In this document: in pieces, positions 10,830 to 48,176 of the stretch
Position numbering within the stretch: position 1 is the first letter of the stretch
Layout of the letters: each line of letters begins with the position of its first letter
Source: Minisyncoccota bacterium
GTDB lineage: Bacteria; Patescibacteriota; Minisyncoccia; Phycocordibacterales; CAIZLB01
Assembly: GCA_031973395.1 (NCBI GenBank)
Contig: DALYDD010000004.1
Location: forward strand, 447-61,013
Direction of reading: 5' to 3'
DNA: 60,567 bases
The notes under the pieces: generated by a model
Told to the model about the DNA's origin: nothing
Database searches by the model: none
What the model saw: only the letters and a program-made list of their open reading frames with translations
Made by a program: the position numbers and the translations under genes

Positions 10830-11324
10830 ATGAAAAAAGCGATAGTCTCGATTATAGTTTTAATTGTCGTAGTTGGAGCAATCACTGTGTATGCAACACA
10901 AGATGCAAAAAGTGATAATTCAGCTCAGCAAGCAAATGTGGGAGCTGTTACCGTGAAAGATATGGCAGCAGATACAAATCAAGTTAATAATTCATCAAAT
11001 ACAAATATGGAAAACGCAAATGTGGCACAAAATGGAGATATGGTTTTCGTTCACTATACTGGAAAGCTAACCGATGGTACGAAATTTGATAGCTCGGTAG
11101 ATCGAGGTCAGCCATTTGGATTCATGCTCGGCTCAGGTATGGTTATCGCTGGTTGGGACAAGGGGGTTCTCGGAATGAAGATTGGGGAAAAGAAAACTCT
11201 CACAATTGCACCAGAGGATGGCTATGGGGCAACTGGCGTGAAGAATCCTCAGACAGGAGAAGTTGTCATTCCTGCGAATGCGACATTGGTTTTTGATGTT
11301 GAGTTGATTGATATTAAACGATAA
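10830..11324 (+). CDS. FKBP-type peptidyl-prolyl cis-trans isomerase, membrane-anchored
   Basis: VHYTGKLTDGTKFDSS..GQPFGFMLGSGMVIAGWDKGVLGMKIGEKKTLTIAPEDGYG..LVFDVELIDI. Confidence 0.9.
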   Translation: MKKAIVSIIVLIVVVGAITVYATQDAKSDNSAQQANVGAVTVKDMAADTNQVNNSSNTNMENANVAQNGDMVFVHYTGKLTDGTKFDSSVDRGQPFGFMLGSGMVIAGWDKGVLGMKIGEKKTLTIAPEDGYGATGVKNPQTGEVVIPANATLVFDVELIDIKR

Positions 11325-11325
11325 G

Positions 11326-11416
11326 AAAAATAAAAAGCTTTCTTTGTACTGTCCTCGGTTTCGATTATGGCAACATAGTCATCCTGCGGAGGCACTTAAG
11401 GAAGCTTTTTATTTTT
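11326..11416 (+). repeat. palindromic element copy 2 (15-bp perfect outer arms, conserved core 11350-11392, GCAA-capped apex)
   Basis: Arms AAAAATAAAAAGCTT (11326-11340) and AAGCTTTTTATTTTT (11402-11416). The core matches copies 1 and 3. The element starts 2 nt after the FKBP stop. Confidence 0.75.
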
Positions 11417-11478
11417 TTCTAAAAAAGCCAGCTTCTTGGTCTCCTGAGGATATTTTGGTAGTATCTATAAGAATCCTT

Positions 11479-11550
11479 GCCGCCGTCGTTCAATGGATAG
11501 GACTATTCTTTCCTAAAGAATTAATGCAGGTTCGATTCCTGCCGGTGGCA
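11479..11550 (+). tRNA. tRNA-Arg(CCU): tRNA-Arg (anticodon CCU)
   Basis: Cloverleaf: acceptor GCCGCCG/CGGTGGC, anticodon arm ATTCT-TTCCTAA-AGAAT, T arm GCAGG-TTCGATT-CCTGC. No encoded CCA. Confidence 0.9.
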
Positions 11551-11592
11551 CAAATAAAAATACGCCGTAAGGCGATTTTTTATTTGTGCCAC
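11545..11592 (+). terminator. terminator hairpin whose 5' arm includes the tRNA-Arg 3' end
   Basis: GTGGCACAAATAAAAA / TTTTTATTTGTGCCAC (16 bp perfect), enclosing CGCC-GTAA-GGCG followed by a T-run. Confidence 0.7.
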
Positions 11593-11729
11593 GGAGCAGG
11601 CCAACTGCTTGGCCTGCGCGCAGGAATCGAAAAGGTTCTCCTTTATTTTCGAGAATGGAGCGTAGCGAGATTGGAGAAAATAGGGAACCTGTACTGGTCC
11701 TGTAAGGACCGATTCCTGCCGGGGGCACA
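11586..11729 (+). ncRNA. tRNA-trailer structured RNA module, copy A (unnamed family)
   Basis: H1 is GCAGGCCAA-CTGC-TTGGCCTGC. GCAGGAATCG (11620-11629) pairs with CGATTCCTGC (11710-11719). P3 is GGTTCTC/GGGAACC plus ATTTTC/GAAAAT. The hairpin GGTCC-TGTAA-GGACC follows. The module ends with a 21-nt copy of the tRNA-Arg 3' end. Homologous copies lie at 18859-19054 and 37112-37278. Confidence 0.65.
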
Positions 11730-11759
11730 ATTTTAAACAGAGTTTGCTATACTATACCC

Positions 11760-18775: not shown

Positions 18776-18858
18776 TTTAGAGGTATACGAAAAGAAAGGT
18801 TTAAATAAGGGGCTCGGTCACGAATCACTAAGTCTTTTTCTTCGCTACACTTGAAAAA

Positions 18859-19054
18859 GCCCAAGTGTTCGCTGTCCTTACAGGACCAGTACACCTTTTG
18901 GATCTTTTATTTCACTTCGTTCATAAAAGCTCTCAAAAGGTTTTACGCTTTGAGTGAAACTCAAGGCTCACCCGGCTCGCCTGTCGCAAAGCGACATGAC
19001 TCCGCCTTTCTCGCCCGGACGCAAGCCAAGCAGTTGGCTTGCTCCACTCGGCAC
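18859..19054 (-). ncRNA. tRNA-trailer structured RNA module, copy B (expanded/divergent)
   Basis: The minus strand carries H1 GCAAGCCAA-CTGC-TTGGCTTGC, P3 CCTTTTG/CAAAAGG plus CTTTTAT/ATAAAAG (compensatory relative to copies A and C), TGTACT-GGTCC-TGTAA-GGAC, and a closing GCCGAG/CTTGG(G)C followed by TTTTT. Confidence 0.55.
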
Positions 19055-19100
19055 AAAATACAAAAGCACCCAGATGGGTGCTTTTGTATTTTGTGCCGAG
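19047..19100 (-). terminator. terminator hairpin sequestering the tRNA-Phe 3' end
   Basis: Perfect 25-bp stem CTCGGCACAAAATACAAAAGCACCC / GGGTGCTTTTGTATTTTGTGCCGAG with loop ATCT. The inner GCACCC/GGGTGC stem is followed by a T-run. Confidence 0.7.
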
Positions 19101-19166
19101 GGCCGGGCTCGAACCGGCGACCCCATCCTCTTCAGGGATATGCTCTACCAACTGAGCTACCTCGGC
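19094..19166 (-). tRNA. tRNA-Phe(GAA): tRNA-Phe (anticodon GAA)
   Basis: GCCGAGGTAGCTCAGTTGGTAGAGC...CTGAAGA...GCCGGTTCGAGCCCGGCCCTCGGCA forms a canonical 73-nt cloverleaf. Confidence 0.92.
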
Positions 19167-25833: not shown

Positions 25834-28800
25834 TTGTCAAAAAAAAGATATAATATGTATTACATGATCCCGATTCCTGGTATGCCAGCGCCTGAACATG
25901 GGCATGGCTTCTCTGCACAAAATTTCCCCAAAAAACAATTTTCGGCAAAAAAAATAGCCGGAGTTATTTTATTTGGCTTGGTTGCTATTCTTGGTATTTT
26001 GCAAATTCATAAGCAGGTATCAGCAATCGCAACTACCATTGCTGTCATGTCTGATGGTGGTGGGTCTACTGCGCAACAAATGATCGATGATTTGGATCAA
26101 ATCCTTTTGCAAAAATTGTCCGGTTGGAATATTGATGCGGTCGGATGGAACGGAGATATTGGGTATGACACACTAGGGTCAGGTACTTCATCTGTGGCTT
26201 TTGCGGTTGGAGCTTATGACTCATCGACTGCTGGTGTGGCGGGTATTCCACTCTTCCTTGCAGAAGGTAACCATGAAGCGGAGAATGCTGCCGATGTCCT
26301 CCGGCTTAGACAAATGTATACGCGATATCAAGGCTATGCGACAAGTTCGGTTCATGGCCCTCTAGGGTGGAACTTTTCTCAAATGCCGAATGCGTATTCT
26401 TCGACAACAAACTATGCATATGATATCGGTGATATCCGTGTAATTGTTGTAAACCAGTATGCTGCAACTACTAGTGATGCGGTAAATACGACAGGTAGGG
26501 TTCACGAACAGGTTTTCGAATGGATTAAGAGCGAAATTAAGAAGACAACCAAACAGCACATCGCGGTAATGGCCCATGAGCCGGCGTATCCGGTGCCTTC
26601 TCAAGTAAGCGGAAACCATATCGGCGATTCCCTTGATGCAGATCCTGCAAACCGAGATAAATTTGTAAACCTTCTTGCATCGTATGGTCAGATTAATCAT
26701 TTCGTAGGTCATACACATATTGCTGATTTGTACGAAATGAAAAACACTACTGCGGGTGTGAATGGTGATGCCCGAACAACAACGACGTCACTGGATGGAG
26801 GTATCTGGGAATTAGACTCCGGAGGATTTGGTGATAAGGCTCCGGGTGGTGGTGGACAGCATACATATCCTGGAATCGGTTATTTGCACACAAATTCAGC
26901 TAACTGGGGAGACTATACATTGATGCTTGTATATGGAGAGGGTTCGCCTCAGTGGGCCGCTCCCACCTCGGAAACCGTAGGTATCAGCAACCTGACTAGA
27001 CAAATTTTGGTAAATACATGGCAAGGTGCTGGTACAGGAACCTCATCAAATGGATTATTTGATATGAGTTATTATGTCGATTATACAGATGCTGTGGCTG
27101 CAAATCCTGACTGGTCTGCGAATAATTCCGGAAAGTGGTGGGAGCCTGCATTTAGTACTACGACTGCAGGATGGACCAGTGGCGAGTTAGGTGTTGGGTA
27201 TCGAACTGATGCTGCTGCGCCGCAGTGGATAAATAAGCCGATTGATGCTTTTGGTGGTCTTGCAACCACCACTCCGCAGGTATATAGCATCATGCAGCGA
27301 ATAGTTTTCCCTGCGACCACAACCTCTTCATACGGTAATATGACTCTACACCTTGACGATGATGATGGTGTAATGGTTTGGCTCAACGGTACGCTCATTT
27401 TGAATAGTACAAATGCTTCTGTGACCGCACCAACAACAGGAAGCGGAGCTGAATATTTTGATAAGGTGCAAACTAATACCTCAAACGGTTGGGTAGGAAC
27501 ATCGATTAGTCCGACATTTAGCACGGTCGATATATCTGCATTCAAAGGCTCATTGGTTAATGGGCAGAATACATTGGTGGTTTGGAATATAAACGGAGGA
27601 AGCAGTACGTCAACCGACCTAGGCGTCGCTGTTCGATTATCGATTTCAGGTGCAGTTGACGCTATTGCTCCAAATATTTCAAGTGTTGCTTCTACAACTC
27701 CCACCGTGAATACAGCAACGGTGTCTTGGACGACAAATGAATCATCTGATTCACAAGTTGAGTATGGTTTAACGAGCACCTATACGGCATCAACTACACT
27801 GGATACAAACATGGTTACAAGTCACTCTGTAAATATTTCAGGTCTTGCAACTTCAACTACGTATCATTTCCGCGTGATATCAAAAGATGCTTCGGCTAAT
27901 AGAACAAACTCTACGGATTATACATTTACCACACCTGCGTCAACCCCGTCAGCTGCCACAACTACTTTACGAGAAGGGCAAAATGGGTATACAGGAATGA
28001 CGGATACATATCTGAACGCAAGTTCTACATATACCAATAACGGGACAGCTACCACTATGCTCATTGACGGTGCTGCACCATTTGCAAACGGTTTAATGAA
28101 ATGGGATGTATCGTCAATTCCAAGCAATGCCACAATTCAAAGTGTGAGCATTTCTTATAATGTAACCAATAACTCTGGGGCTAATACGTATACAATATAT
28201 AAATCAACTCAGAACTGGGTAGAAAATGAGACCAACTGGGCTTCTAGTTCAGTGTCGGTACCGTGGGGGTTACCTGGCTCACTCGATAATTCAGATGACT
28301 ATGTGGACACGTCGCTCGGTACCCTTGGTACCGCGTCTATTGCTCCAGCAACATCGACATTGAATGCGGCAGGTATTGCTGTTGTTCAGGGTTGGGTTTC
28401 TGGATCTACTCCAAACCAAGGATTCTTTATTAGTAGGACTAGTACTGCAGATATTGATGGATTGCAATTTGATTCAAGTGAAGCGGCGACCGTAGGTAAT
28501 CGTCCAGGGCTTACTATCGTCTACAATCTTCCGAGTGGTCCCGATATTACGGCCCCCGTTGTATCGGCTGTTGCATCAAGTACCACTGCTTCAGCGGCAA
28601 CAATTACTTGGACAACAAATGAGGCGGCCACAAGCACAATTGATTTTGGTACAACATCGGGGTATGGTACGGCATCATCTTCTGCGACTGCGACAACCTC
28701 ACATAGGATTGTCATTTCTGGGCTCGCAAGCAGTACTTTGTATCATTATCGCATTAGTGTGTGGGACACATCTGGCAATTTGGCCACGACCTCTGACCTA

Positions 28801-31800
28801 ACATTTACAACCACCGCCCCAGATACGACGGCGCCGAGTATCGTTGGAAATGTTGCATCCTCTACGACTTCAAGCTCCGGGACTATTACTTGGACAACAG
28901 ACGAAGCTGCTTCTTCGAGAGTTGTTTATGGTACAAGCACTGGTACATACACCGCTTCTTCGACATCTGCTACAGCTACAACTAGTCACTCCCATGTTCT
29001 CTCAGGGTTGCTTGGTTCCACACCTTATTATTTCCGAGTGGTGTCCACTGATGCGTCTTTGAATACATCAACTTCATCTGAAATGATATTTACAACTAGC
29101 GGAGGGGCAACGACGGTCTCATTGCGAGAAGGTCAGAACAGTTATTCTGGAATGGTGGATACGTATCTCGATAGTGCAGCAGTAACAACGAATCAAGGTA
29201 CGAATGTGATTGTCGCGATCGATGGGTCACCTGCATTGACTGGTCTCATGAAATGGGATCTATCTTCGATACCGTCAAGCGCCACTGTCTCAGATGTAAA
29301 GCTTGTTTATAACGTCACTAATATAACTGCAAATACATACAATATATATAGATCGCTACGCGCATGGACAGAAGGCGGTGCAACATGGAATACATACGAT
29401 GGTACTAATTCGTGGGGTACTGTTGGGGGGTTAAATGCGACATCAGACTATAATTCAACGTCTCTTGGAACTGTGGGTGTAAATAGTTTGGGTCTTGCTA
29501 CTACGACACTCAATGCTTCTGGAATAACTTTGGTGCAAGGCTGGGTAGATGGATCTATTACAAATAATGGATTTACTCTACATCAATCGGCATCAACAGA
29601 CAGTGTTCAATTTGATTCGAGCGAGGGTTTAACAACCGCCTTGCGTCCGGCACTTGTCGTTACTTATAGCACAGGCGGACCCGACACCACACCTCCGGTA
29701 ATATCAAGTGTTGCTTCTTCGACAACTGAAACCACTTCAACGATTACCTGGAACACTGATGAATCGGCAACGACGGCTATGGTGTACGGAACGGTTTCTG
29801 GAACACTTGGCACAGCGAGCTCTTCTGCATCAACTGGTACGACACATAGTCTGGTTTTGACGGGATTGGCTCCTGCAACTACGTATTATTTCCGAGTGGT
29901 TTCAACAGATGGTTCAGCGAATACTGCGACATCTTCCGAATTTTCATTTAGAACCGTAACACCTGAGGCTACAAGTACGGCATGGTGGAACGCATCTTGG
30001 GGTAAGCGTATACCTGTCACATTTGATAATGTCGGACATGCAGAAAATTTAACCAACTTCCCAGTACGTGTGGTTTTGAATAGTTCGCGCATTACATACG
30101 GAGATTTCAAGGCGAATGGAGACGATATTAGATTTGTCGATGCGGATGGTGCAACAGTTTTGCAATATGAAATAGAAAACTGGGATACTGCGAGTACTTC
30201 AAATATTTGGGTAAAGGTTCCTCAAGTCAATTCGGCTTCTTCGAATGACTTTATATATATGTATTATAACAATCCTGCTGCAAGTGCCGCAGCAACGACA
30301 ACTGGGGTTTGGGATAGTAATTACAAGGGCGTATGGCACTTGGGTCAGAATCCAGCAGGTACTGCTCCGCAGATGCTCGATAGTACAATAAATGCAAAAC
30401 ATGCGACGACGGCCGGTTCAATGACTGCGGATCAGCGCGTACTAGGTCAATCTGGATTTGCGGTGAATCTCACAGGTAATGATTACCTTTCAATGGGGGC
30501 GCTGGGTGCTATGGCAGGCGGACGAACTGTAAGTATGTGGATCAATGGTAATTCTTGGACTCGAACTGATACAGGTGATAATGCCCTGTTCGCATTCAAT
30601 ACCTCTGCTGGTGGAAATACGGATATTGTTCGTATCAGTACGGCAGGTTCTATTGGTCACTATAACGGAACAACGGTTGTTCCCGCTTCCAGTTCTGTGG
30701 CCATCGCAACAGGCGGATGGCACCATATTTCGATTGTCTCTTCGAGTACGGCTAATGCCAGCTTGATTTATCAAGATGGTGTTTTGGTGGGAACAGCAGC
30801 TACTTGGGCACCGGCAGTTGGAGCAACGGATGTATTCTTTGCGGGTCAAGAAATTGATACTACGACCGCGAGCGACTTCTTTAATGGAAAGCAAGATGAA
30901 ATTCGTGTCGAGTCAGCTGCGAGAACGGCTAAATGGATACAGGCACAATTTGAAACACAGGAAGATTCATTTATCACATATGGTTCCGCAGAAAGTGGTG
31001 CGGATACGACACCACCTGTCATTTCAAGCATTGCTTCTTCTACCGCAACCTCTACGGCTTCGATAACATGGTCAACAAATGAAGTGGCAACATCTACTGT
31101 TCAATATGGATTAACCACAAGTTATGGATCACAAGCGACTTCAAGTGGTACAACAACGCATTCGGTATCCTTGTCCTCACTTACACCGAACACTCTTTAT
31201 CATTACCGAGTTACTGCCATAGACGCATCGACCAATCTCTCGACATCAACAGATATAACATTTACCACGACCGCCATAACAGATACTACACCGCCGGTTA
31301 TTTCAGATATTGCATCTTCGACGAGTACATCAACCGCCTCTATAACATGGTCAACTGACGAGGCTGCAACATCTACTGTTCAATATGGATTAACCACAAG
31401 TTATGGATCACAAGCGACTTCAAGTGGGACGAGTACACATTCAGTCTCATTGTCTAGTTTGACTCCAAATACTCTGTATCACTATCGAGTCACAGCGATT
31501 GATTCAAGTACGAATACTTCGACTTCTTCAGATCGAACATTCACGACTACGGCTTTGCCTGACACTACGGCACCTACCATAAGTGCCGTCGCTTCGACGA
31601 CAGGTGTTACGACAGCGACTATTACATATACAACCAATGAAGCTGCAAGTTCGACGATAGACTATGGCTTAACTACTGGCTATGGATCACAAGCAACTTC
31701 AAGTGGAACCACAAGCCACTCGGTCTCATTATCTGGTCTGACATCTTCGACTCTTTATCATTACCGAATCACAGCAACAGATTCGAGCGGTAATGCCTCA

Positions 31801-33657
31801 TCGACAACCGATCTCACGTTTACGACTACTGCTGCACCAGATGTCACTCCGCCTGCGGTTGAGCTCACTGCACCTGCGGCAAGTGCATTGGTGACAGGGT
31901 CTTCGGTTACATTAACCGCATCCTCTTCTGATGGTGTCGGTGTAGCGGGAGTTAAATTCTACGTCGACAATACATTGATCCAGTCAGAAGACACCTCTTT
32001 CCCTTATACGTTGAGTTGGGATAGTACATCAGTTGCGAGTGGTACAAGGATATTAATTGCTGTTGCTCGAGATTCTGCCGGCAACCAAGCAACTTCTTCA
32101 CCGGTATCTGTGACTGTAGACAATGCTGTGCCGGTGATCTCGAATATCGCAAGTTCTTCTGCGCAGACGACCGCATCAATCAGTTTCACTACAAATGAAA
32201 ACACTACGGTCCGTGTAAACTACGGTCTGACCAGTGGCTATGGATCAAGTACGGCATTTACATCTACTGCAAGTACGACACATACAGTGGCGCTAACTGG
32301 TTTGAATCAAAATACTGCATATCATTTCCAAATTGAAGTAAGAGACGCTGTTCCGTTTACTGCTACGTCTACAGATCGTATTTTGACCACTACACCCGAT
32401 GTGACAGCTCCTGTAATTAGTACAATAGGCGCTGTCGCTGCGAATACATCTGGAACTATTTCTTGGGTCACAGACGAAGCCGCTTCTTCCCAGGTCACAT
32501 ATGGATTACTTAGTAGATACGATCAAATCACTGCAAAAACTGATACTTCACCACGTGTTACTGATCATAGTGTCTCGATCACAGGATTATCTTCTTGTGC
32601 CGTTTATTCGTACAAAGTTATTTCTCAAGATACTGCTGGCAATACTTCGACTTCTTCTGCTACGGAATTTGTTACAACTGGTTGTACTGGCGGTGCAGCG
32701 GCAGGTGCGAATGAAGAACAGCAAATTGCAACTTCTACCGGAGGTAATGTAGAACTTATCCAGGGGGGTGAGGGAATAGGGCTTAATATCCCGGCTGGAT
32801 TTTCTTCAACTTCGAGCTCAACAGTATTCCAGATCTTGCAGGTAAATGCAGCGGCCGTAGCAAATGGTGGTGGTGCCCCAGCTCCGGGTATGGCTCCTGT
32901 TGATACGTATATGTTTAGACTTAATGCGTTGACTGCGATTAATACGGTAATCACATCATTTGATGCAGAGATCACCATCACTATTACATATTCAGATGCA
33001 GATGTTGCTGGATTCGATGAGAGTACGCTCAAGATGTATCGCTACGATGGATCATCGTGGCATGAACTTGATGACTGTGTATTGAATACCACTTTGAATA
33101 CGATTACCTGTACTACGACTCGATTCTCTGATTTTGGAATGTTTGGAATTCCTATACCGGGAAATAGTGGATCTGCTCCAGTAACCGTGGCTCCAGGCAG
33201 TGTGGCCTTCACAACAGGTACAAGCGGAGGATTATTGGCCATCAACCAAAATGCATTAGGCTGTCAAAATGGTGCGATATTCAATGTCTATAGTGGCCAA
33301 CGATGCCCAAGTTCTATCGGTTCAGTGCCAACGGGTACAAATTCTGGAAATAATACTTCGGGTAATTTCCCAAATATTCCAGCCAATTTCTCTTTCACAA
33401 AATTATTAACACCTGGAATGACTCATCCTGATATCTTGCACCTCCAGCGAGTGTTGAATGCAGATAAGACTACAAGGGTAGCTATAAAGGGTATAGGTTC
33501 GCAAGGTAAAGAAATCGATTATTTTGGTCCAGGGACAAAACAGGCGGTAATCAAATTCCAGATTAAATATGGTGTCATCAAGAATGCAAAAGATCCATAT
33601 GCAGGTACGACAGGTCCTGGTACGCGGGCTGCGCTCAATAGACTATTGAGGAAGTAG
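25834..33657 (+). CDS. giant surface protein: TM anchor, metallophosphoesterase-like domain, DNRLRE-type modules, many Fn3 repeats, DUF2341/LamG-like region, Ig-like domain, C-terminal peptidoglycan-binding domain
   Basis: 2607 aa. GNHE/GHTH phosphoesterase motifs. Repeated (T/S)WTT(N/D)E..S...YG...Y Fn3 units. WWNASWGKRIPVTFDN...DIRFVD resembles DUF2341. The C-terminal LQRVLN...GPGTKQAVIKFQ resembles PG_binding_1. The start codon is uncertain (TTG at 25834, with ATGs shortly downstream). Confidence 0.8.
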   Translation: MSKKRYNMYYMIPIPGMPAPEHGHGFSAQNFPKKQFSAKKIAGVILFGLVAILGILQIHKQVSAIATTIAVMSDGGGSTAQQMIDDLDQILLQKLSGWNIDAVGWNGDIGYDTLGSGTSSVAFAVGAYDSSTAGVAGIPLFLAEGNHEAENAADVLRLRQMYTRYQGYATSSVHGPLGWNFSQMPNAYSSTTNYAYDIGDIRVIVVNQYAATTSDAVNTTGRVHEQVFEWIKSEIKKTTKQHIAVMAHEPAYPVPSQVSGNHIGDSLDADPANRDKFVNLLASYGQINHFVGHTHIADLYEMKNTTAGVNGDARTTTTSLDGGIWELDSGGFGDKAPGGGGQHTYPGIGYLHTNSANWGDYTLMLVYGEGSPQWAAPTSETVGISNLTRQILVNTWQGAGTGTSSNGLFDMSYYVDYTDAVAANPDWSANNSGKWWEPAFSTTTAGWTSGELGVGYRTDAAAPQWINKPIDAFGGLATTTPQVYSIMQRIVFPATTTSSYGNMTLHLDDDDGVMVWLNGTLILNSTNASVTAPTTGSGAEYFDKVQTNTSNGWVGTSISPTFSTVDISAFKGSLVNGQNTLVVWNINGGSSTSTDLGVAVRLSISGAVDAIAPNISSVASTTPTVNTATVSWTTNESSDSQVEYGLTSTYTASTTLDTNMVTSHSVNISGLATSTTYHFRVISKDASANRTNSTDYTFTTPASTPSAATTTLREGQNGYTGMTDTYLNASSTYTNNGTATTMLIDGAAPFANGLMKWDVSSIPSNATIQSVSISYNVTNNSGANTYTIYKSTQNWVENETNWASSSVSVPWGLPGSLDNSDDYVDTSLGTLGTASIAPATSTLNAAGIAVVQGWVSGSTPNQGFFISRTSTADIDGLQFDSSEAATVGNRPGLTIVYNLPSGPDITAPVVSAVASSTTASAATITWTTNEAATSTIDFGTTSGYGTASSSATATTSHRIVISGLASSTLYHYRISVWDTSGNLATTSDLTFTTTAPDTTAPSIVGNVASSTTSSSGTITWTTDEAASSRVVYGTSTGTYTASSTSATATTSHSHVLSGLLGSTPYYFRVVSTDASLNTSTSSEMIFTTSGGATTVSLREGQNSYSGMVDTYLDSAAVTTNQGTNVIVAIDGSPALTGLMKWDLSSIPSSATVSDVKLVYNVTNITANTYNIYRSLRAWTEGGATWNTYDGTNSWGTVGGLNATSDYNSTSLGTVGVNSLGLATTTLNASGITLVQGWVDGSITNNGFTLHQSASTDSVQFDSSEGLTTALRPALVVTYSTGGPDTTPPVISSVASSTTETTSTITWNTDESATTAMVYGTVSGTLGTASSSASTGTTHSLVLTGLAPATTYYFRVVSTDGSANTATSSEFSFRTVTPEATSTAWWNASWGKRIPVTFDNVGHAENLTNFPVRVVLNSSRITYGDFKANGDDIRFVDADGATVLQYEIENWDTASTSNIWVKVPQVNSASSNDFIYMYYNNPAASAAATTTGVWDSNYKGVWHLGQNPAGTAPQMLDSTINAKHATTAGSMTADQRVLGQSGFAVNLTGNDYLSMGALGAMAGGRTVSMWINGNSWTRTDTGDNALFAFNTSAGGNTDIVRISTAGSIGHYNGTTVVPASSSVAIATGGWHHISIVSSSTANASLIYQDGVLVGTAATWAPAVGATDVFFAGQEIDTTTASDFFNGKQDEIRVESAARTAKWIQAQFETQEDSFITYGSAESGADTTPPVISSIASSTATSTASITWSTNEVATSTVQYGLTTSYGSQATSSGTTTHSVSLSSLTPNTLYHYRVTAIDASTNLSTSTDITFTTTAITDTTPPVISDIASSTSTSTASITWSTDEAATSTVQYGLTTSYGSQATSSGTSTHSVSLSSLTPNTLYHYRVTAIDSSTNTSTSSDRTFTTTALPDTTAPTISAVASTTGVTTATITYTTNEAASSTIDYGLTTGYGSQATSSGTTSHSVSLSGLTSSTLYHYRITATDSSGNASSTTDLTFTTTAAPDVTPPAVELTAPAASALVTGSSVTLTASSSDGVGVAGVKFYVDNTLIQSEDTSFPYTLSWDSTSVASGTRILIAVARDSAGNQATSSPVSVTVDNAVPVISNIASSSAQTTASISFTTNENTTVRVNYGLTSGYGSSTAFTSTASTTHTVALTGLNQNTAYHFQIEVRDAVPFTATSTDRILTTTPDVTAPVISTIGAVAANTSGTISWVTDEAASSQVTYGLLSRYDQITAKTDTSPRVTDHSVSITGLSSCAVYSYKVISQDTAGNTSTSSATEFVTTGCTGGAAAGANEEQQIATSTGGNVELIQGGEGIGLNIPAGFSSTSSSTVFQILQVNAAAVANGGGAPAPGMAPVDTYMFRLNALTAINTVITSFDAEITITITYSDADVAGFDESTLKMYRYDGSSWHELDDCVLNTTLNTITCTTTRFSDFGMFGIPIPGNSGSAPVTVAPGSVAFTTGTSGGLLAINQNALGCQNGAIFNVYSGQRCPSSIGSVPTGTNSGNNTSGNFPNIPANFSFTKLLTPGMTHPDILHLQRVLNADKTTRVAIKGIGSQGKEIDYFGPGTKQAVIKFQIKYGVIKNAKDPYAGTTGPGTRAALNRLLRK
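31012..31850 (+). repeat. three tandem ~280-nt Fn3-coding units inside the giant gene
   Basis: Units start near 31012, 31291 and 31570. Units 1 and 2 share a 62-nt perfectly identical block (31087-31148 = 31366-31427). Confidence 0.8.
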
Positions 33658-37111: not shown

Positions 37112-37278
37112 TGGTGACCCTGCGGAGAGTTGGTCCTTACAGGACCAGTACAGGTTTCCCATTTTCTCAAATTTGATTCTAATTTCGGCTTCGCCTATGG
37201 GAATAAAATTATCGAAAATATGGGAGAACCTTTTCGACTCTCCGCCGCGAGCCAAGCAGTTGGCTCGCTTAGGGTCAC
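37112..37278 (-). ncRNA. tRNA-trailer structured RNA module, copy C (Glu-type, ends in ACCA)
   Basis: The minus strand reads GTGACCC-TA-[GCGAGCCAA-CTGC-TTGGCTCGC]-CGGAGAGT-CGAAAA-[GGTTCTCCC...GGGAAACC]-TGTACT-[GGTCC-TGTAA-GGACC]-A-ACTCTCCG-CA-GGGTCAC-CA. Confidence 0.65.
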
Positions 37279-37328
37279 ACTCGCAAAACAAAAACCACCT
37301 TTCGGTGGGTTTTGCTCGTGTGACCCCA
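37272..37328 (-). terminator. terminator hairpin originally abutting tRNA-Glu (now separated from it by the island)
   Basis: GGGTCACACGAGCAAAAC-CCACC-GAAA-GGTGG-TTTTTGTTTTGCGAGTGTGACCC. Confidence 0.6.
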
Positions 37329-37364
37329 TTGTACCTTAATTGGAACACTTTAGAGAACGCAATC

Positions 37365-37661
37365 TTATCTTGGAAGTCGTTTAGACTTTCGCGTTCTTTT
37401 GATATAAATCAATCCTAAAATGGCAAAAATGATTGCTAATACGGATAAGAAAGTGTGATTATTGAAAAAAGCATATACTCCATTGATCACGCAATACCTG
37501 CTTGTGCAAGGTTGCGAAAGCTCAATAAAAGAGTTGTGTCCGGAAATCTGATCTCCGATCCATATCGCAGCAATTGCAAACCCATACAGTGCAACTATCA
37601 TTGAAAACAACCATGCGATTCCACCAATGAAATAGCTGATGATTTTTATGTTTTTTGTCAT
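37365..37661 (-). CDS. small polytopic membrane protein (island)
   Basis: 98 aa, 3 predicted TM segments, basic tail. Confidence 0.45.
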   Translation of the reverse strand: MTKNIKIISYFIGGIAWLFSMIVALYGFAIAAIWIGDQISGHNSFIELSQPCTSRYCVINGVYAFFNNHTFLSVLAIIFAILGLIYIKRTRKSKRLPR

Positions 37662-37758
37662 TGTGAACCCATTGCGTGGCTTTCAGAACTTACTAAACAG
37701 AGGGATTATATCGTCTCTGCCATTCAGAACCTTGGCTCGCTTATGGTTTCGTAAATCT

Positions 37759-38343
37759 CTATTCTGTTAATGTAACTTCTATAAAATCATTTTTTTGTTC
37801 GGGGTGTTTTATATAGTACCTAAAAGACTTATAGGGCGACTTACCTTTACCTTTGAAATAGGTATAAAATTGCGGTCGGTATGATGTGTCATCTCCTCTT
37901 TGGTCGATTGACTCAATCCACTCAAAAGGTATCACACCTGTCATTAAGATATTTGATGATGTGTCGTTACTATCTTGAGGTTTCTTACTGAAAGAAGTGT
38001 CGCCTATACGATATGCGGATATGACCTCACAAAAAAACTCGACGCCAGCAAAATGATAACCTTTAATTTCTGCCCCTAGATAGGTATATCCGTGTCTATT
38101 TTCTGTATTGCTTGTAGGATAGTGGCTATCGTATTTCTTTATGTTGATTAGTTCTATCTTGCTACTTATTCCATTTCGGACCTTATATACAAGCTCATCA
38201 ACAATCTTTTGAATTGCCTCACGCCTAGTAAAACGTTCCCTGAATGACTGTTGTTTGGAAAGACTATAAACGTGATAGGCAACGAAAGTACCGATGACAA
38301 TTCCTACGACACTGATAATTGTATTTATAATTTCAATACTCAT
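37759..38343 (-). CDS. membrane-anchored hypothetical protein (island, last gene of the idi operon)
   Basis: 194 aa with an N-terminal TM segment (IINTIISVVGIVIGTFVAYHVY) and a soluble domain with no recognised motif. Confidence 0.5.
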   Translation of the reverse strand: MSIEIINTIISVVGIVIGTFVAYHVYSLSKQQSFRERFTRREAIQKIVDELVYKVRNGISSKIELINIKKYDSHYPTSNTENRHGYTYLGAEIKGYHFAGVEFFCEVISAYRIGDTSFSKKPQDSNDTSSNILMTGVIPFEWIESIDQRGDDTSYRPQFYTYFKGKGKSPYKSFRYYIKHPEQKNDFIEVTLTE

Positions 38344-38351
38344 ATAGGTAG

Positions 38352-38374
38352 GTTCACAACGTTCACTTGTTCAT
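38352..38374. promoter_or_regulatory. triple direct repeat GTTCAC-N3-GTTCAC-N2-GTTCAT immediately upstream of the 194-aa gene
   Basis: The same triplet array recurs at 40342-40365 and partially at 40222-40237. Inverted units occur at 40370-40392. Confidence 0.5.
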
Positions 38375-38375
38375 C

Positions 38376-39668
38376 CTAGCTCTTGGCCCAAACTGAAGAT
38401 AACCTATCTTTTTCATTATCAAGCCAAGTTATCATTTCTTTTGTACGCTTATTTACCAAAGATTGCTGTGGACGAATTTTCGTATCAAATTTAATTGAAA
38501 GCAATTTAACATATCTATTACCTTTTACTAAACTCACAACTAAATCTTCAAGAAAGCTTTTACTTTCAGATGGTTCAAATTCTTTCAGTGCTTCAAGTGC
38601 AATATAAGCGTAGGCTGTGGCGTCTACTAGAGCAAGCTTAATGTAGTCACCCTTTACCATCATCTCTCTCATCTTCTCTTGCCATTCCTGTTCTGATTTA
38701 TGCTTATAAAAATCTTCAAGAAGTGAAATGTGCTCATTGTTCTTGTTATTAAGCAGGATTTGAATTGGCCACGTAAGTCTCTCGTTTTTTATATCAATAA
38801 ATACATCTTCAGATACCTTCTCACGTGTAGGCGAATTATTTCCAGTCAAGTCTAGTGCGAAGTCTTGAATATCGTTTACCACCATCATCAACATACCATA
38901 GCAGAAAGCATACCTCGTTAATTGCTTCAATGTGTTGTTTTCAACCTTTTCAGAAAAAAGAGATGTGAGAATAGTAGGAAATCGCTCAATCATATAAGCA
39001 TTTAAACCGTAAGTGCGTTTCCAAACAAATTCCGCAATACTTGAAGCGTCTATTTTCACACCCTCTTTTAGTTCATTTTCCACTAGTTTTAGCTCTGGCT
39101 TTAAAATTTGAGCATCTAACTTTCTATCTTCTGAAATAGTAAGTGGTAGGAGATTATTCTTATTGAAATTATTATACACATTAAAGAGTGTATCGAATGT
39201 TTGACCTAGATATATACCTCTGTATATCTCTTCAGTAAATAATATAAGTTTTTCCTTTTGTTCATTGTTTAGCAATGTTGTTTCATTGATAAAATCAGAA
39301 TGACAGTCTCTTAAAAAAGTAGCCGTTTTAAAAGCCGTTATTTTTTTATCTCCAATATATCCAGACTTTCCATCTGCCCCGACATTATAACAATATGCTT
39401 GTATCATATTTAATTCCAAAGATGCACATAGAAAGTAAAATGCTTCACCAGTCTCTATGTTTAAAATATGTGCAATAAGATATAAGAAATGAGCTCGTGA
39501 ACTTTGCTTTGATGCAATTTTATCAAGAGCAAATTCTTTCAACATTAGGGCGACATCTTTATCTTCACATAACAGAGATTTATTTGTTAGAAACGAATTA
39601 AGAAACGGAAAATAACTTGCGTGTATTTCCTTCATCTGCTGAAACCTTTTTTCTGTTCTATCTAACAT
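38376..39668 (-). CDS. polyprenyl synthase/terpene synthase-fold protein with degenerate Asp-rich motifs (island)
   Basis: 430 aa. ASLELNMIQAYCYNVGAD occupies the place of the first DDxxD. YLGQTFD. FCYGMLMMVVNDIQDFALDLTG aligns with GxxFQxxDDxLDxTG. DIKNERLTWPI aligns with D(l)xxGKxTlP. Confidence 0.55.
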   Translation of the reverse strand: MLDRTEKRFQQMKEIHASYFPFLNSFLTNKSLLCEDKDVALMLKEFALDKIASKQSSRAHFLYLIAHILNIETGEAFYFLCASLELNMIQAYCYNVGADGKSGYIGDKKITAFKTATFLRDCHSDFINETTLLNNEQKEKLILFTEEIYRGIYLGQTFDTLFNVYNNFNKNNLLPLTISEDRKLDAQILKPELKLVENELKEGVKIDASSIAEFVWKRTYGLNAYMIERFPTILTSLFSEKVENNTLKQLTRYAFCYGMLMMVVNDIQDFALDLTGNNSPTREKVSEDVFIDIKNERLTWPIQILLNNKNNEHISLLEDFYKHKSEQEWQEKMREMMVKGDYIKLALVDATAYAYIALEALKEFEPSESKSFLEDLVVSLVKGNRYVKLLSIKFDTKIRPQQSLVNKRTKEMITWLDNEKDRLSSVWAKS

Positions 39669-40176
39669 TGTTGAGAAAGGTTTGGTTATTCATAATAATT
39701 TTCAACCATTCTGTATAGAGGGTAGGATTATTCTCAATATCTTTCTTAAGCTCTGCAATTTTAATCCATTTATATTCTGATACCTCTTCAAAATTTGGAT
39801 GTGGCTCTTCATCACTGTTACCAATAAAGACGTGGTCAAACTCATTTTCAACTAGACCATTTTCTAATTCAACTTTATACATAAAAGTAAACAATTCTTC
39901 CAAATCACAATCAATCCCCATTTCTTCTTGAAGTCTTCTGTGAATTGCCACTCTCAAATTTTCGTTTTCTTTAGGATGACTACAGCACGTATTACTCCAT
40001 AAACCACCAGAATGATATTTAGCGGGATTTCTTCTTTGTAGGAGAAGTTCAGTATTTTTATTAAATATAAAAATAGAAAATGCCTCGTGGAGAACACCAG
40101 ATTTATGTGCTTCCAGTTTTTCAACTGTGCCTATCCTGTTTCCTTCTTTATCTACTAGATTTATTAAGTCACCCAT
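39658..40176 (-). CDS. idi: isopentenyl-diphosphate delta-isomerase, type 1 (Nudix fold) (island)
   Basis: 172 aa, collinear with E. coli Idi. EAH..GVLHEAFS supplies the His ligands. WSNTCCSHP supplies the catalytic Cys and a His. ENEFDHVF is the E-x-E motif. EVSEYKWI is also present. Confidence 0.85.
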   Translation of the reverse strand: MGDLINLVDKEGNRIGTVEKLEAHKSGVLHEAFSIFIFNKNTELLLQRRNPAKYHSGGLWSNTCCSHPKENENLRVAIHRRLQEEMGIDCDLEELFTFMYKVELENGLVENEFDHVFIGNSDEEPHPNFEEVSEYKWIKIAELKKDIENNPTLYTEWLKIIMNNQTFLNNVR

Positions 40177-40221
40177 AATTATTTGACCATAATATCAAAA
40201 ATTTCTCAAAACATCTAGACA

Positions 40222-40393
40222 TTCACGACGTTCACACTTGAGAAATAATTTGCACAAAAAAGTAGCTCTTTTTCGACTAATTTCGCCTAATTTATATCAA
40301 GACAACCCGAACCCTTTATAAAACTCTGTTTTTATTGTAAAGTTCACAATGTTCACCACGTTCATTTTTGTGAACGTGTGTACGATGTGAATG
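40222..40393. promoter_or_regulatory. divergent control region of the island with GTTCAC iteron-like repeats
   Basis: ATTCACGACGTTCAC lies at 40222-40236. GTTCAC occurs at 40342 and 40351, and GTTCAT at 40360, on a 9-nt period. The palindrome CACGTTCA-N5-TGAACGTG lies at 40357-40377. GTGAAT overlaps the ATG at 40391. Confidence 0.5.
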
Positions 40394-41791: not shown

Positions 41792-41965
41792 TTCCTGACT
41801 TTTCCTGAAAAATAATTATAGACTGTCCCGAAACACCCTTGAAATACGGGGTGTTTTTCTATTTACAGGAAATCAAATGAAATACGCAGAACATTCTCAA
41901 AAGGCAAAAATTGGTATGTAGCTTTTCTTGGCGGAAGTACACATATCAATAAAACACCAATATAA

Positions 41966-42253
41966 ATGTTTATGAAAAAACACATAGCAGAAGTTCCTCT
42001 CGACGATTATAAGAACTATTACTACTCAAACGACATTGATGTCGCATCGGTACTCGTGTGCAAGGGATACACGCTCGAAGATGTGGTCCCCATCTCAAAC
42101 AATAAGGCGACTTTTGTCTTCAAAAATCATCCTGCCATCACCGATGCAGTTGATGGATTTTGGAGTAACCGAATTGAGGTCCATCCTCTTGAATTTGCCA
42201 ACGCTCGCAAGAACCTGAAGTCTCGCATTTTTGGTATGCGAAAAGATTACTAA
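41966..42253 (+). CDS. small hypothetical protein (island)
   Basis: 95 aa. The pattern LVCKGYTLEDV...ATFVF...AI..FW......V.PLEF..A.K.LKSRI resembles small phage/plasmid-associated proteins. The assignment is tentative. Confidence 0.45.
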   Translation: MFMKKHIAEVPLDDYKNYYYSNDIDVASVLVCKGYTLEDVVPISNNKATFVFKNHPAITDAVDGFWSNRIEVHPLEFANARKNLKSRIFGMRKDY

Positions 42254-42265
42254 CCACTAATAAAA

Positions 42266-43642: not shown

Positions 43643-43662
43643 TCATTAACTAAGTCAAAACA

Positions 43663-43920
43663 ATGGAAGAAAAAATCATATTCGAGACTGGCTATACAGA
43701 AGACGAGATACAAAGCTTCTCTGAAGCAAATTATGGGCGTGAGCTGACAGAAATTGAGATACACAGAATGAGAGACTATTTGTGGGATGACGATGATGTG
43801 TCTTGGGCACGAATAGAACTGATGGCAAAAGCAATCGAGGCGGTAATGGATAACGAAGGCAACCAATGGAAATCGGTAGACGAAGATTATCAATCTAATT
43901 CAAAACAAAATGAGCGATAA
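43663..43920 (+). CDS. small acidic hypothetical protein (island)
   Basis: 85 aa, very acidic. Overlaps the next gene by 11 nt. Confidence 0.4.
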   Translation: MEEKIIFETGYTEDEIQSFSEANYGRELTEIEIHRMRDYLWDDDDVSWARIELMAKAIEAVMDNEGNQWKSVDEDYQSNSKQNER

Positions 43921-44416: not shown

Positions 44417-44459
44417 AAACGGTTAAACCCTATTGATTTCGGACACTTAACAAACCTTT

Positions 44460-45077: not shown

Positions 45078-45091
45078 CAAAAAATGATATT

Positions 45092-45328
45092 ATGAACTCA
45101 TTACACGAAAGCCAAAATAATACCCTCACGGTTGAGAATACTGGAAAGCTTTTGTGTGATGAGAAGGCATCTGTAGTTCTCTCAAAGGACACACTCAATG
45201 CTCTTGAAGAGCTTGGCGATGTATTGAGAGGTATTCATAAAAGGATGGTATTTGAAGGATACGAAATTGTGGATGGAAACATTCGCAAACTAGTGCCTCA
45301 AAATGTAAATGTATATGAAAAAGTCTAG
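45092..45328 (+). CDS. small hypothetical protein overlapping the recombinase start (possible accessory/directionality factor)
   Basis: 78 aa. Its 3' end overlaps the recombinase gene by 20 nt. The function is inferred from position only. Confidence 0.35.
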   Translation: MNSLHESQNNTLTVENTGKLLCDEKASVVLSKDTLNALEELGDVLRGIHKRMVFEGYEIVDGNIRKLVPQNVNVYEKV

Positions 45329-48171: not shown

Positions 48172-48176
48172 CAAAG

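Follow-up and report, generated by a model that had tools for sequence, protein, structure and literature searches.

Small structured elements without proteins behind tRNA genes of Patescibacteria form an undescribed family

Introduction

Islands and prophages in the 3' ends of tRNA genes reportedly fall into sublocation classes, as laid out by Williams in 2002. In retroviruses, the primer-binding site (PBS) is re-copied from the tRNA that is actually used. In Thermoproteales, tRNA introns transpose between tRNAs, and related inserts are found at the same position, the T-loop included, in many tRNAs. Moreover, the flanking pairing of archaeal tRNA introns and split tRNA genes is adapted to each exon.

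In this study, we followed up a structured module that an initial annotation had placed behind a tRNA-Arg gene in a window of 60,567 nucleotides (the whole stretch of DNA analyzed; Minisyncoccota bacterium, contig DALYDD010000004.1, positions 447 to 61,013 of the forward strand). This module, termed copy A, is a member of a large, undescribed family of small, structured, protein-less elements of Patescibacteria that lie just 3' of tRNA genes on the tRNA strand. It contains a sense copy of the tRNA 3' end, referred to as the decoy, and an antisense copy of the same region.

Similar to integron attC sites and the CTX-phi attP(+) hairpin, the element is an imperfect palindrome that folds in one strand and rebuilds a target-site duplex, keeps its structure while its sequence varies, piles up in tandem and forms a protein-less cassette. 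Different from both, it is accompanied neither by an intI or Xer gene nor by an attI or dif context, and its stem has the sequence of the adjacent tRNA and varies together with it. Where attC possesses R/L boxes with extrahelical bases, the element possesses conserved joiners (GTAC, GTA) and tandem G.A pairs. A palindromic single-strand fold and tandem arrays were present, and no recurrent protein family, and hence no recurrent integrase, was found near the 51 loci of this study.

Similar to islands and prophages in tRNA 3' ends, the element has a direct repeat starting in the T-loop, leaves the tRNA intact and accretes in tandem at the same tRNA. Different from them, it is only ~110–200 nt long, has no integrase, carries an antisense att copy and serves 18 or more tRNA specificities with one scaffold. 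The repeated tRNA 3' segment that identifies tRNA islands was found (21 nt in copy A; p = 2e-16 for cognate decoys). However, no integrase or recombinase lay between the repeats of copy A, no protein family recurred at the 51 loci, and the recombinase in the vicinity of copy C is part of a distinct insertion. Similar to MITEs, the element is small, multi-copy, protein-less and nestable, has inverted-repeat ends and is patchy in relatives. However, its "terminal inverted repeats" are copies of the neighboring tRNA 3' end and not element-specific, it has no known fixed-length target duplication or matching transposase, and it lies strictly downstream of tRNAs on the same strand. A MITE was rejected as the arms are not the same in all copies but equal the neighboring tRNA, and the right duplication boundary varies from nt 63 to nt 98.

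Like the PBS of retroviruses and LTR elements, the element contains the complement of the 3'-terminal ~18–22 nt of a specific tRNA (acceptor and T-stem 3' strands and part of the T-loop). Different from the PBS, this complement fits the genomic trailer (CAA) and not CCA, it is interrupted by a hairpin (H1), and the element resides in a bacterial host without reverse transcriptase or LTRs. With archaeal introns, the element shares the recurrence of related inserts at one tRNA position in many tRNAs and the fitting of the flanking pairing to each of them. Unlike archaeal introns, the element lies beside an uninterrupted tRNA and shows no bulge-helix-bulge motif, and we know of no splicing endonuclease in these bacteria. 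Finally, T-box leaders and other tRNA-binding RNAs are also structured RNAs made specific for one tRNA by base pairing. The element, however, pairs with the whole tRNA 3' strand (nt 54–73) and not with the anticodon and NCCA, has no specifier loop, T-box sequence or conserved downstream gene, and lies downstream of the tRNA gene. A T-box riboswitch was also rejected for lack of an Rfam match and because the genes that follow are unrelated, namely purD for copy A and a convergent ORF for copy B.

Copy A downstream of tRNA-Arg

All features of copy A are on the + strand. The tRNA-Arg(CCT) gene (11479–11551; ARAGORN; Rfam tRNA, 59.5 bits) is followed by a terminator-like hairpin R (11552–11585), which consists of an A-tract, CGCC-GTAA-GGCG and a T-tract. 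R alone folds at -10 kcal/mol, was not flagged by a simple terminator scan and forms the apex of a long palindrome, S-R-AS. The 22-nt arms of this inverted repeat span 11545–11566 and 11571–11592, and their outer 16 bp (GTGGCACAAATAAAAA / TTTTTATTTGTGCCAC) are perfect. The first antisense segment, AS_acc, which is also the 5' strand of P1 (TTGTGCCACGG, 11584–11594), is antisense to the acceptor 3' strand and trailer and matches the reverse complement of tRNA nt 66–75 at 9 of 10 positions. An alternative assignment of AS_acc as a sense copy of the tRNA 5' acceptor strand was rejected for copy A, because AS_acc faces U69 with an A, whereas the 5' strand carries G4 at this place, and because it complements the trailer as well. 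The next feature is H1 (GCAGGCCAA-CTGC-TTGGCCTGC, 11596–11617), an inverted repeat of 9 bp with arms at 11596–11604 and 11609–11617, which sits exactly opposite the tRNA 65/66 junction.

The second antisense segment, AS_T or the P2 5' strand (GCAGGAATCGAA, 11620–11631), is the exact reverse complement of tRNA nt 54–65. Its first ten nucleotides (GCAGGAATCG, 11620–11629) are 100% complementary to the decoy sequence CGATTCCTGC (11710–11719), and the 12-mer is also 100% complementary to TTCGATTCCTGC (11531–11542) of the real tRNA-Arg. The following AAAA (J2/3, 11630–11633) had been taken as a joiner. An A-rich joiner is indeed conserved, but the first two A's are shared with AS_T and pair with T54 and T55. 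Thus, the antisense copy spans tRNA nt 54–73. The long arm P3 (11634–11689), which shows covariation, contains a GGTTCTC/GGGAACC base, an ATTTTC/GAAAAT helix and C-GA-G / G-GA-G. It is followed by the joiner J3/4 TGTACT (11690–11695), whose GTAC core is invariant in the family, and by the hairpin P4 (GGTCC-TGTAA-GGACC, 11696–11710), with pairing, covariation and a conserved loop GTA. The module ends with the decoy S' (11710–11730), a sense copy of tRNA-Arg nt 56–73 and trailer CAA with 1 mismatch, which provides the 3' strands of P2 and P1. The resulting direct repeat (11533–11553 / 11710–11730) is 21 nt long, with one mismatch; the decoy carries G for U at tRNA-Arg position 69. The copied tRNA-Arg stretch as a whole comprises nt 54–73 (11531–11550) and trailer CA. 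The initial annotation was correct on the positions of all hairpins of copy A, of its 21-nt tRNA-Arg 3'-end copy and of the internal complement.

The module of copy A folds at -67.3 kcal/mol (z = -6.05). No gene was called in the ~175 nt between the repeats, and the sole ORF spanning this stretch (11308–11736) also crosses the tRNA gene. Downstream lies purD, and Pfam searches of the neighbors in the window identified FKBP, PurD, Hsp20 and others.

Copies B and C

Copies B and C are both on the - strand. Copy B (18809–19053; model match 18872–18947) lies behind tRNA-Phe (19093–19166), as had been reported. It consists of AS_acc (GTGCCGAG, 19053–19046), H1 (19042–19021), a degenerate AS_T (TCCGGGCGAGAA, 19019–19008) and the 5' half of a second scaffold type (type-2), followed by P3, TGTACT and P4 (18940–18874). 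A 57-nt extra insert separates P4 from a short decoy (CGAGCCCC, 18816–18809). This short inner decoy lay outside the range considered previously, and the earlier statement that copy B can match only its outer closing helix does not hold.

Copy C (37112–37327; model match 37121–37246) is matched to tRNA-Glu. A 9-nt remnant GGGGTCACA (37327–37319) precedes the terminator hairpin, and AS_acc (37282–37272) lies 3' of it. H1 (37268–37247), AS_T (GCGGAGAGTCG, 37245–37235), P3 (37230–37153), TGTACT (37152–37147), P4 (37146–37132) and the decoy (37132–37112), which equals tRNA-Glu at 18 of 21 positions, then follow in order. The tRNA whose 3' end copy C carries, tRNA-Glu(TTC) (46975–47047, - strand), lies 9.8 kb upstream on the same strand. 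Copy C had been described as following tRNA-Glu as copy B follows tRNA-Phe, but ~9.6 kb of inserted DNA, including a large serine recombinase ORF, lies between the two. This island has its own 8–9-bp junction repeat GGGTCACA, and at another locus, L048, the same module lies directly behind an uninterrupted tRNA-Glu. The serine-recombinase island at tRNA-Glu is a separate, later event and is distinct from the module. The compensatory changes previously listed for H1 and P3 were correct in all three copies.

The element family in Patescibacteria

At gathering thresholds, Rfam 15 matched only the 4 tRNAs in the whole window. At E ≤ 10 for copies A and B and E ≤ 5 for the array of locus L016, only tRNA and noise below gathering scores were found. 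ARAGORN identified the 4 true tRNAs in the window, none of them inside a module, and no tmRNA or tRNA pseudogene. A search of the literature found no description of the element. Thus, the view that no described family has this layout is upheld.

The conserved 20-mer TGTACTGGTCCTGTAAGGAC was found three times in the window and not once in 100 shuffles. Exact copies were present in 51 stretches of species-representative genomes labeled as Patescibacteria-group or plain "bacterium". With a covariance model, as the initial annotation had proposed, 72 copies were identified, with strong covariation in P2, P3 and P4. The identified elements were ~110–200 nt in size and contained no protein. Of these copies, 51 were <450 nt behind a same-strand tRNA, and the tRNAs represented 18 amino-acid types. 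The rewriting of the arms to match each tRNA, first proposed from three copies, was seen across all 18 types, and copies paired with a tRNA were always on the strand of that tRNA. About 25% (12/48) of unselected tRNAs in the carrier loci bore the element. Near-identical scaffolds were found in Saccharibacteria and Paceibacteria; the same scaffold class was found behind different tRNAs, and different classes behind the same tRNA. A metagenome scan with a loose pattern found only 5 loci, with 3 model matches. As neither the exact 20-mer nor the loose pattern matched any viral contig, a viral origin was rejected.

All-against-all BLAST of 716 ORFs identified no protein family in more than 5 of the 51 loci. 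The CCA-adding enzyme was near the element in 5 loci, which probably reflects shared gene order.

Fold and covariation

In the family alignment, 88.4% of the cells were paired, vs 66.3% in shuffles and 38–53% when partners were slid, and 351 cells were changed on both sides, vs 106 expected. P2, P3 and P4 covaried strongly. The covariation alignment was fitted to the model, and part of the P2 covariation is trivial, arising from tRNA diversity. In P3, covariation was found in 10 of 10 modeled pairs; since the P3 base was misplaced by one column in some rows of the MAFFT alignment A1, the P3 counts are conservative. Among the copies found by the model, P4 was paired throughout (100%), and each of its 5 pairs covaried. 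In variant copies, the P4 3' strand is the T-loop's own TTC. Counts of G.U vs A.C in the model-fitted alignment were mildly asymmetric (63 vs 52 overall, 40 vs 15 in P2). In 61 of 68 copies, the fold of the tRNA-sense strand was the more stable one (p = 1e-10).

The conserved fold is a three-way junction with ~15 conserved unpaired or junction nucleotides, which lends circumstantial support to a possible self-cleaving ribozyme of a new class. Columns 14–15 of J2/3 were 98–100% A, and columns 178–185 of J3/4 were 95–100% conserved. In addition, GA/GA 2x2 internal loops were present in 28 of 66 P3 arms of the family. Covariation in P2, P3 and P4, the sense-strand bias and the conserved junction nucleotides all support the earlier suggestion of a selected single-strand fold and not of coding sequence or decay.

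Distribution among relatives and possible mobility

Mobility had been listed before only as one option for the module. Relatives were reached via PurD (73–75% identity) and FtsH (81%). The element was missing in the syntenic relatives L052–L054, around purD and tRNA-Phe, and L063/L064, in the ftsH-recG interval. At L060, a 99% FtsH relative, an identical module was present. L054 resembles an empty site: its terminator and flank are homologous, so that the inserted block maps immediately 3' of the terminator T-tract. As the empty-site relatives share only 73–81% protein identity, insertion boundaries are inexact. Tandem and nested arrays were found at L010, L013, L016, L017, L047 and L049, and degenerate tRNA-end junctions preceded some copies (L002, L043, and L055). 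The left boundary of the duplicated segment was fixed at nt 54–56, and its right boundary reached from nt 63 as far as nt 98. Patchiness in relatives, copy number and arrays thus point to mobility; absence from relatives could also mean loss instead of gain.

The explanation we tentatively prefer, at slightly under an even chance, is that the element is a non-autonomous structured mobile element with arms templated from the target tRNA. It would be non-autonomous as no protein family is common to more than 5 of the 51 loci. Its scaffold is composed, in order, of H1, the A-rich joiner, P3 rich in tandem G.A pairs, UGUACU and P4 with a UGUAA loop, and holds three tRNA-specific inserts: the antisense acceptor 3' strand, the antisense T-loop and T-stem 3' strand, and, after P4, sense nt 54/56 to ~75. 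The active form would be a folded single strand, most likely RNA from read-through of the tRNA promoter, given that no promoter-like site was found upstream of copies A and B and that tRNA-paired copies always share the tRNA strand; the promoter scan of copy C found only two weak sites, both within P3. Because a terminator-like hairpin is often between the tRNA and the element, transcription may be weak. The folded strand would form a three-way junction whose stem mimics the T-arm/acceptor duplex of the target tRNA gene. On settling behind a new tRNA gene, the arms would be templated from its 3' end, presumably by an enzyme acting in trans, so that the sense copy would be the duplicated target and the antisense copy the target-pairing part. 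In the read-through transcript, the antisense would have two options, namely closing the module on the decoy or clamping the 3' strand of the tRNA itself. To our knowledge, no mechanism writes antisense and sense target copies into fixed positions of a scaffold. Simple snap-back copying cannot explain the antisense copy, as H1 splits it.

Pairing with the adjacent tRNA

The main alternative, albeit rather unlikely, is that the element is a host cis-acting RNA, i.e., a switch or clamp for each tRNA on its read-through pre-tRNA, in which the antisense would pair with nt 54–73 and the trailer and the decoy would compete. Such an RNA might decide whether terminator-escaping transcripts are, for instance, matured, degraded or cut in the ~40-bp S-R-AS duplex by an RNase III-type activity; another option is that it yields a processed mimic of the tRNA top half. 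How the antisense matches the tRNA is consistent with such a role. AS_T was complementary to the real tRNA at ≥10 of 12 positions in 37 of 41 copies, and the acceptor part of the decoy was kept in only 13 of 41 (ungapped count). With gaps allowed, mean matches were 17.1/21 for the antisense copy and 15.1/21 for the decoy. At positions where tRNA and decoy differ, the antisense agreed with the tRNA in 29 cases and with the decoy in none. The initial annotation had described closing helices with the decoy, but the pairing of the antisense with the real tRNA is the better kept. The acceptor part of the antisense was also present at L005, L010, L039 and L041, where the decoy has no acceptor part, and at the tRNA-His loci L015 and L020 the tRNA, antisense copy and decoy all changed together. 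The link to the specific tRNA also speaks for the mobile-element explanation. Tests of cognate against non-cognate tRNAs gave p = 2e-16 (decoy) and p = 1e-11 (antisense copy). An antisense match of ≥11 of 12 was found downstream of 31 of 42 module-bearing tRNAs vs 1 of 40 module-less ones, and in none of 82 upstream controls. In most copies, AS_acc and AS_T were 22–26 nt apart.

The two alternative pairings proposed earlier both exist, as the clamped and closed folds of the transcript. The minimum free energy (MFE) of the tRNA-Arg and module transcript, -117.2 kcal/mol, belongs to the clamped state, which agrees with a host clamp, and an intact tRNA with a closed module gives -103.7 kcal/mol. 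The same strand and close spacing to the tRNA, the lack of a promoter-like site upstream of copies A and B, the sense-strand fold bias, and junction and tandem GA motifs typical of functional RNAs argue for a host RNA as well, and the strong conservation of the junction sequence would fit a host function equally. However, only some 25% of the tRNAs of carrier genomes bear the element, close syntenic relatives live without it, and tandem or nested copies and interchangeable scaffolds are ill-suited to a tuned regulator. Moreover, the discordances between tRNA and decoy cluster at nt 63–65 and come mostly from truncated decoys rather than from selection on the antisense. It is unlikely, too, that the element is a self-propagating RNA without any protein, possibly a new ribozyme or a small circular S-R-AS-scaffold RNA, that would re-template its guide arms at each tRNA, or that Patescibacteria use a per-tRNA antisense clamp of 3'-end maturation.

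Other explanations

It is quite improbable that the element acts in the manner of a bridge RNA or TnpB guide RNA and directs a recombinase or nuclease from another part of the genome, in which case its two segments would address both strands of the tRNA-gene 3' end. Its target-specific segments do lie at fixed places in a conserved scaffold of ~100–150 nt with the sense 20-mer at the 3' end, and the RNA-guided systems TIGR and IS110 provide a precedent with two spacers, one for each DNA strand (PMC12045711). However, the two "guides" are mutually complementary and would pair with each other, no IS110, TnpB, Tas or other conserved gene adjoined any of the 51 loci, and Rfam gave no family match at E ≤ 10 in the regions searched. 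IS110 bridge RNA, TIGR tigRNA and TnpB-IscB omega RNA were rejected because no effector gene is conserved next to the element. The unit lengths and motifs are also unlike TIGR (9-nt spacers, 36-nt RNAs), and TIGR arrays were rejected since unit sizes and gene context do not fit.

That the modules are leftover attR sites of integrase-borne islands in tRNA 3' ends, with the decoy as the displaced tRNA end and the module as a conserved arm, is highly improbable. Islands are classically recognized by a direct repeat of the tRNA 3' end, a real serine-recombinase island is present at tRNA-Glu upstream of copy C, and the degenerate tRNA-end junctions before the copies at L002, L043 and L055 would also fit. 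In 41 of 55 exact-20-mer copies, however, the whole unit lies <400 nt from an intact tRNA, which leaves no space for an island or integrase, and these compact copies largely refute this explanation. Nor does an integrase family recur across loci, and the antisense copy, H1 and the covarying P3 and P4 would be left unexplained. The tRNA-Glu island, with its own repeat, and the module behind the uninterrupted tRNA-Glu of L048 speak against attR as well.

An intron-like insertion into the T-loop (nt 55/56), with a spare 3' exon and terminator and a decoy completing the pre-tRNA after removal, would account for the fixed left boundary and for the MFE fold of tRNA-Arg and module, in which the tRNA 5' acceptor and T-stem strands pair with the decoy and S-R-AS-P3-P4 becomes a 175-nt T-loop insertion, but is very improbable given that the upstream tRNA is complete without splicing, many decoys have no acceptor part or carry tRNA-breaking mismatches, no group I, group II or bulge-helix-bulge features and no Rfam match were found, and the comparison with L054 puts the inserted block after the terminator, outside the T-loop.

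Implications

With its strong covariation and ~15 invariant junction nucleotides, the element is a well-defined RNA that is ready for biochemistry whether it is mobile or serves the host. The tRNA-flanking regions of metagenome-assembled genomes would need re-annotation. We know of no described transposon, intron or integrative element whose ends are copied from its target in both orientations. If mobile, the element would be one whose ends are copied in both orientations from its target and are not its own, which implies an unknown templating mechanism. If host-serving, it would add an unrecognized level of control over tRNAs in a vast and little-understood radiation of minimal-genome bacteria.

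Copies of the Module in the Window

The features that the initial annotation described downstream of tRNA-Arg(CCT) (11479–11551) were all found where it had placed them. In copy A, an inverted repeat with 22-nt arms (11545–11566 and 11571–11592), of which the outer 16 bp include the tRNA acceptor 3' strand, is followed by the 9-bp hairpin H1 (11596–11617), by GCAGGAATCG (11620–11629), which is 100% complementary to CGATTCCTGC at 11710–11719, by arm P3 (11634–11689), the joiner TGTACT (11690–11695) and the hairpin P4, GGTCC-TGTAA-GGACC (11696–11710). The last part is the decoy (11710–11730), a 21-nt copy of tRNA nt 56–73 plus CAA with one mismatch. The 12-mer GCAGGAATCGAA is complementary at every position to TTCGATTCCTGC in the real tRNA-Arg (11531–11542). 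Thus, the 5' half of copy A is an antisense copy of tRNA nt 54–73, into which H1 is inserted exactly opposite the tRNA 65/66 junction. The folding z of the copy A module was -6, and the 20-mer TGTACTGGTCCTGTAAGGAC occurred three times in the window and not once in 100 shuffles. No promoter-like site was found upstream of copies A and B. CCA was encoded in none of the four window tRNA genes (11479–11551, 19093–19166, 46975–47047 and 48099–48172); CA followed the discriminator (ACAAA...) in all four and in most tRNAs of related loci.

Behind tRNA-Phe, the same architecture had been proposed with only the outer closing helix matched. The architecture was found in copy B, but a short inner decoy, CGAGCCCC, was also present at 18816–18809 (- strand), past an extra 57-nt insert, and the 5' half (19019–18941) was a second scaffold type. 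Copy C (37112–37327, - strand), whose arms matched tRNA-Glu, was not directly behind that tRNA as had been stated: the matched tRNA-Glu (46975–47047) lay 9.8 kb upstream. The approximately 9.6 kb (37330–46975) that separate tRNA-Glu from its former trailer and the module are probably an integrated island. An ORF for a large serine recombinase of 575 amino acid residues with Resolvase and Recombinase domains (45309–47036, + strand) was located between tRNA-Glu and copy C, and an 8–9-nt junction repeat, GGGTCACA, was found at both ends of the intervening DNA (46975–46983 and 37319–37327). Given this repeat and that at another locus (L048) the same kind of module immediately follows an uninterrupted tRNA-Glu, the island is a later, separate insertion. 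The final ~62 nt of the recombinase ORF run antisense across the tRNA-Glu gene. The island also encodes NUDIX, DUF5659 and several ORFs without family. A motif of ~18–21 nt, A(A/T)(G/A)T(A/G)AATGT(A/T)TATGAAA, lay over the start codons of four + strand island ORFs including the recombinase (40385–40402, 41959–41979, 42259–42279 and 45302–45322) and may be a shared promoter/translation-start cassette.

Distribution and Fold of the Module

Among species-representative genomes, the 20-mer matched 51 stretches, labeled as members of the Patescibacteria group (Paceibacterota/Parcubacteria, Saccharibacteria, Nomura-, Kaiser- and Taylorbacteria) or simply as "bacterium"; viral contigs gave no match. 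A covariance model from 28 copies identified 72 copies in 474 kb of sequence and none in module-less relatives. Fifty-one of the 72 had a tRNA on the same strand <450 nt upstream, with 18 amino-acid types represented; the others were cut by contig ends, situated within arrays or, like copy C, parted from the tRNA by inserted DNA. After exclusion of the tRNAs used for seeding, 12 of the 48 tRNAs in these loci were followed by the module.

In the model-fitted alignment, 88.4% of cells were paired, versus 66.3% in shuffles and 38–53% with partners slid, and both sides had changed in 351 cells (106 expected). P4, invariant by construction in the seed copies, covaried cleanly in the model-found copies (GGTCC/GGACC, GAAGC/GCTTC, GCCGC/GCGGC, GACCG/CGGTC and GAAAC/GTTTC) around a constant TGTAA loop. 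Unpaired positions were invariant in the AA joiner, in UGUACUG (core GUAC) and in loop GUA, and tandem G.A pairs occurred in 28/66 P3 arms. The tRNA-sense strand was more stable than its complement in 61/68 copies (-36.0 vs. -32.0 kcal/mol, p = 1e-10). G.U exceeded A.C in P2, a helix with the decoy as its 3' strand (40 vs. 15), but not asymmetrically overall (63 vs. 52). From these results, the fold is genuine, belongs to the tRNA strand and resembles RNA; a folded DNA single strand is a possible alternative.

The second scaffold type (type 2), ...CGAAAG-nCGGAGC-hairpin-GCGAGGCGGGGTCG-hairpin-GTGAC|CGATTCC, is conserved and is enclosed by the same pair of tRNA arms, one antisense and one sense. 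This scaffold was found in copy B and in L016, L013, L007, L051, L008, L038 and L040, alone or fused/nested with type-1, and had no Rfam family match in L016. The decoys of L011, L017, L025, L031, L044, L018 and L046 carried a 14-nt mini-hairpin (e.g., AAGCGTACTCGCGG, loop GTACT or GTAAT) between tRNA nt 59 and 60, the loop of which is similar to the P4 loop and to the GTAC joiner.

Relation of the Arms to the Upstream tRNA

The T part of the antisense segment matched the upstream tRNA at no fewer than 10 of 12 positions in 37/41 copies, perfectly in 27. By ungapped count, the decoy T part matched at 8 or more of 10 positions in 22/41 copies and the decoy acceptor part in only 13/41; gapped alignment gave averages of 17.1 and 15.1 matches of 21 for antisense copy and decoy, respectively. 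Both arms were highly specific for the cognate over non-cognate tRNAs (antisense p = 1e-11, decoy p = 2e-16). An antisense copy with at least 11 of 12 matches was found downstream of 31/42 module-bearing tRNAs, 1/40 tRNAs without the module and 0/82 upstream controls. Decoys started at nt 56, or at nt 54–55 in P4 variants, and ended at nt 74–77, or at nt 63–69 when truncated. A few extended 6–25 nt into the genomic trailer. The decoy is thus a copy of the gene or primary transcript rather than of mature tRNA.

Of the positions at which tRNA and decoy differed, mostly through decoy truncation, the antisense segment was complementary to the tRNA at 29 and to the decoy at none. Thus, the pairing that is always possible is that between the tRNA 3' strand and the antisense segment, and the decoy helix P1 is optional. 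The suggestion that tRNA 3' end, complement and decoy could pair in two competing ways proved correct, as two states were predicted for the full tRNA-Arg plus module transcript. In the minimum-energy state (-117.2 kcal/mol), the antisense segment clamps the tRNA 3' strand in a ~40-bp hairpin continuous into the terminator, the tRNA 5' strands pair with the decoy, and P3 and P4 stand where the T-loop would be. The state with intact tRNA and closed module was at -103.7 kcal/mol. These energetics, together with the better-kept complementarity between tRNA and antisense segment, support the main rival to a mobile element, in which the module would serve the host as a cis-acting switch that acts on pre-tRNA made by read-through.

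Genomic Context and Module-Less Relatives

Patchy occurrence argues against such a switch, as do arrays and interchangeable scaffolds. One scaffold class was found behind many different tRNAs, the same tRNA was followed by different classes, and near-identical scaffolds were shared by Saccharibacteria and Paceibacteria. Tandem and nested arrays, the second scaffold type and the small hairpins within decoys were all present. No recurring protein family was found near the module among 51 loci, and the window neighbor genes were ordinary (FKBP, purD, Hsp20). The window also contains a very large ORF of 2607 amino acid residues (25834–33657, + strand).

L052, L053 and L054 lack the module yet keep the Grx-FKBP-tRNA-Arg(CCT)-purD order, their PurD being 73–75% identical. 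The tRNA-Phe of L054 is identical to that of the window. Behind it come a terminator homologous to that of the window, with the core CACCCAnnTGGGTG, and then the flank, CCTTCTTAAAC, which resembles window CCTTATTTAAAC just past the copy B decoy; this comparison places the inserted block directly after the terminator T-tract. In L063 and L064, where the order ftsH-tRNA-Ile-recG is kept, the spacer is 141 nt long and lacks the module, which L012 and L060 carry at that site. The anticodon-TAT tRNA between ftsH and recG has an entirely different body in module-bearing L012/L060 (ACACGCG... acceptor, no CCA encoded) from that in module-less L063/L061 (GCCCTT..., CCA encoded); the tRNA gene and the module may have been exchanged as one.

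The tRNA-Arg to purD spacers of L052 (9700–9770) and L053 (2350–2420) contain a different insert with an antisense T-arm-like segment, GCGGGAATCGAACCCAC, a GGCATA/TATGCC closing helix and inverted copies of nearby sequence on its flanks; it received no ARAGORN or Rfam call. Just upstream of tRNA-Arg in L054, a 205-aa ORF (1959–2576) starts with a helix-turn-helix that matches Pfam HTH_7 weakly and also contains the motif "LYWAEGHK," which resembles LAGLIDADG; this ORF may encode a free-standing homing endonuclease.

Interpretation

The results fit a multi-copy, non-autonomous element colonizing the 3' flank of tRNA genes. Given that the same scaffold carries many arm sequences, the arms would have to be templated from the target tRNA gene upon or following insertion. 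We found no known mechanism by which a sense copy and an antisense copy, the latter split by H1, are both written. The folded stem rebuilds a duplex copy of the tRNA gene from T-loop to 3' end; integron attC sites and the hairpin of CTX-phi attP operate in a similar way, and this is the analogy we favor. The mobile-element and host-switch readings are not exclusive. A classical island was rejected for want of an integrase, a MITE because the arms are target-dependent, and a bridge, TIGR or omega guide RNA for want of an adjacent effector gene. The module matched no Rfam family, tmRNA, tRNA-like call, T-box, intron or ribozyme model, and a literature search found no description of it. Thus, we rate this element as lying outside known kinds.
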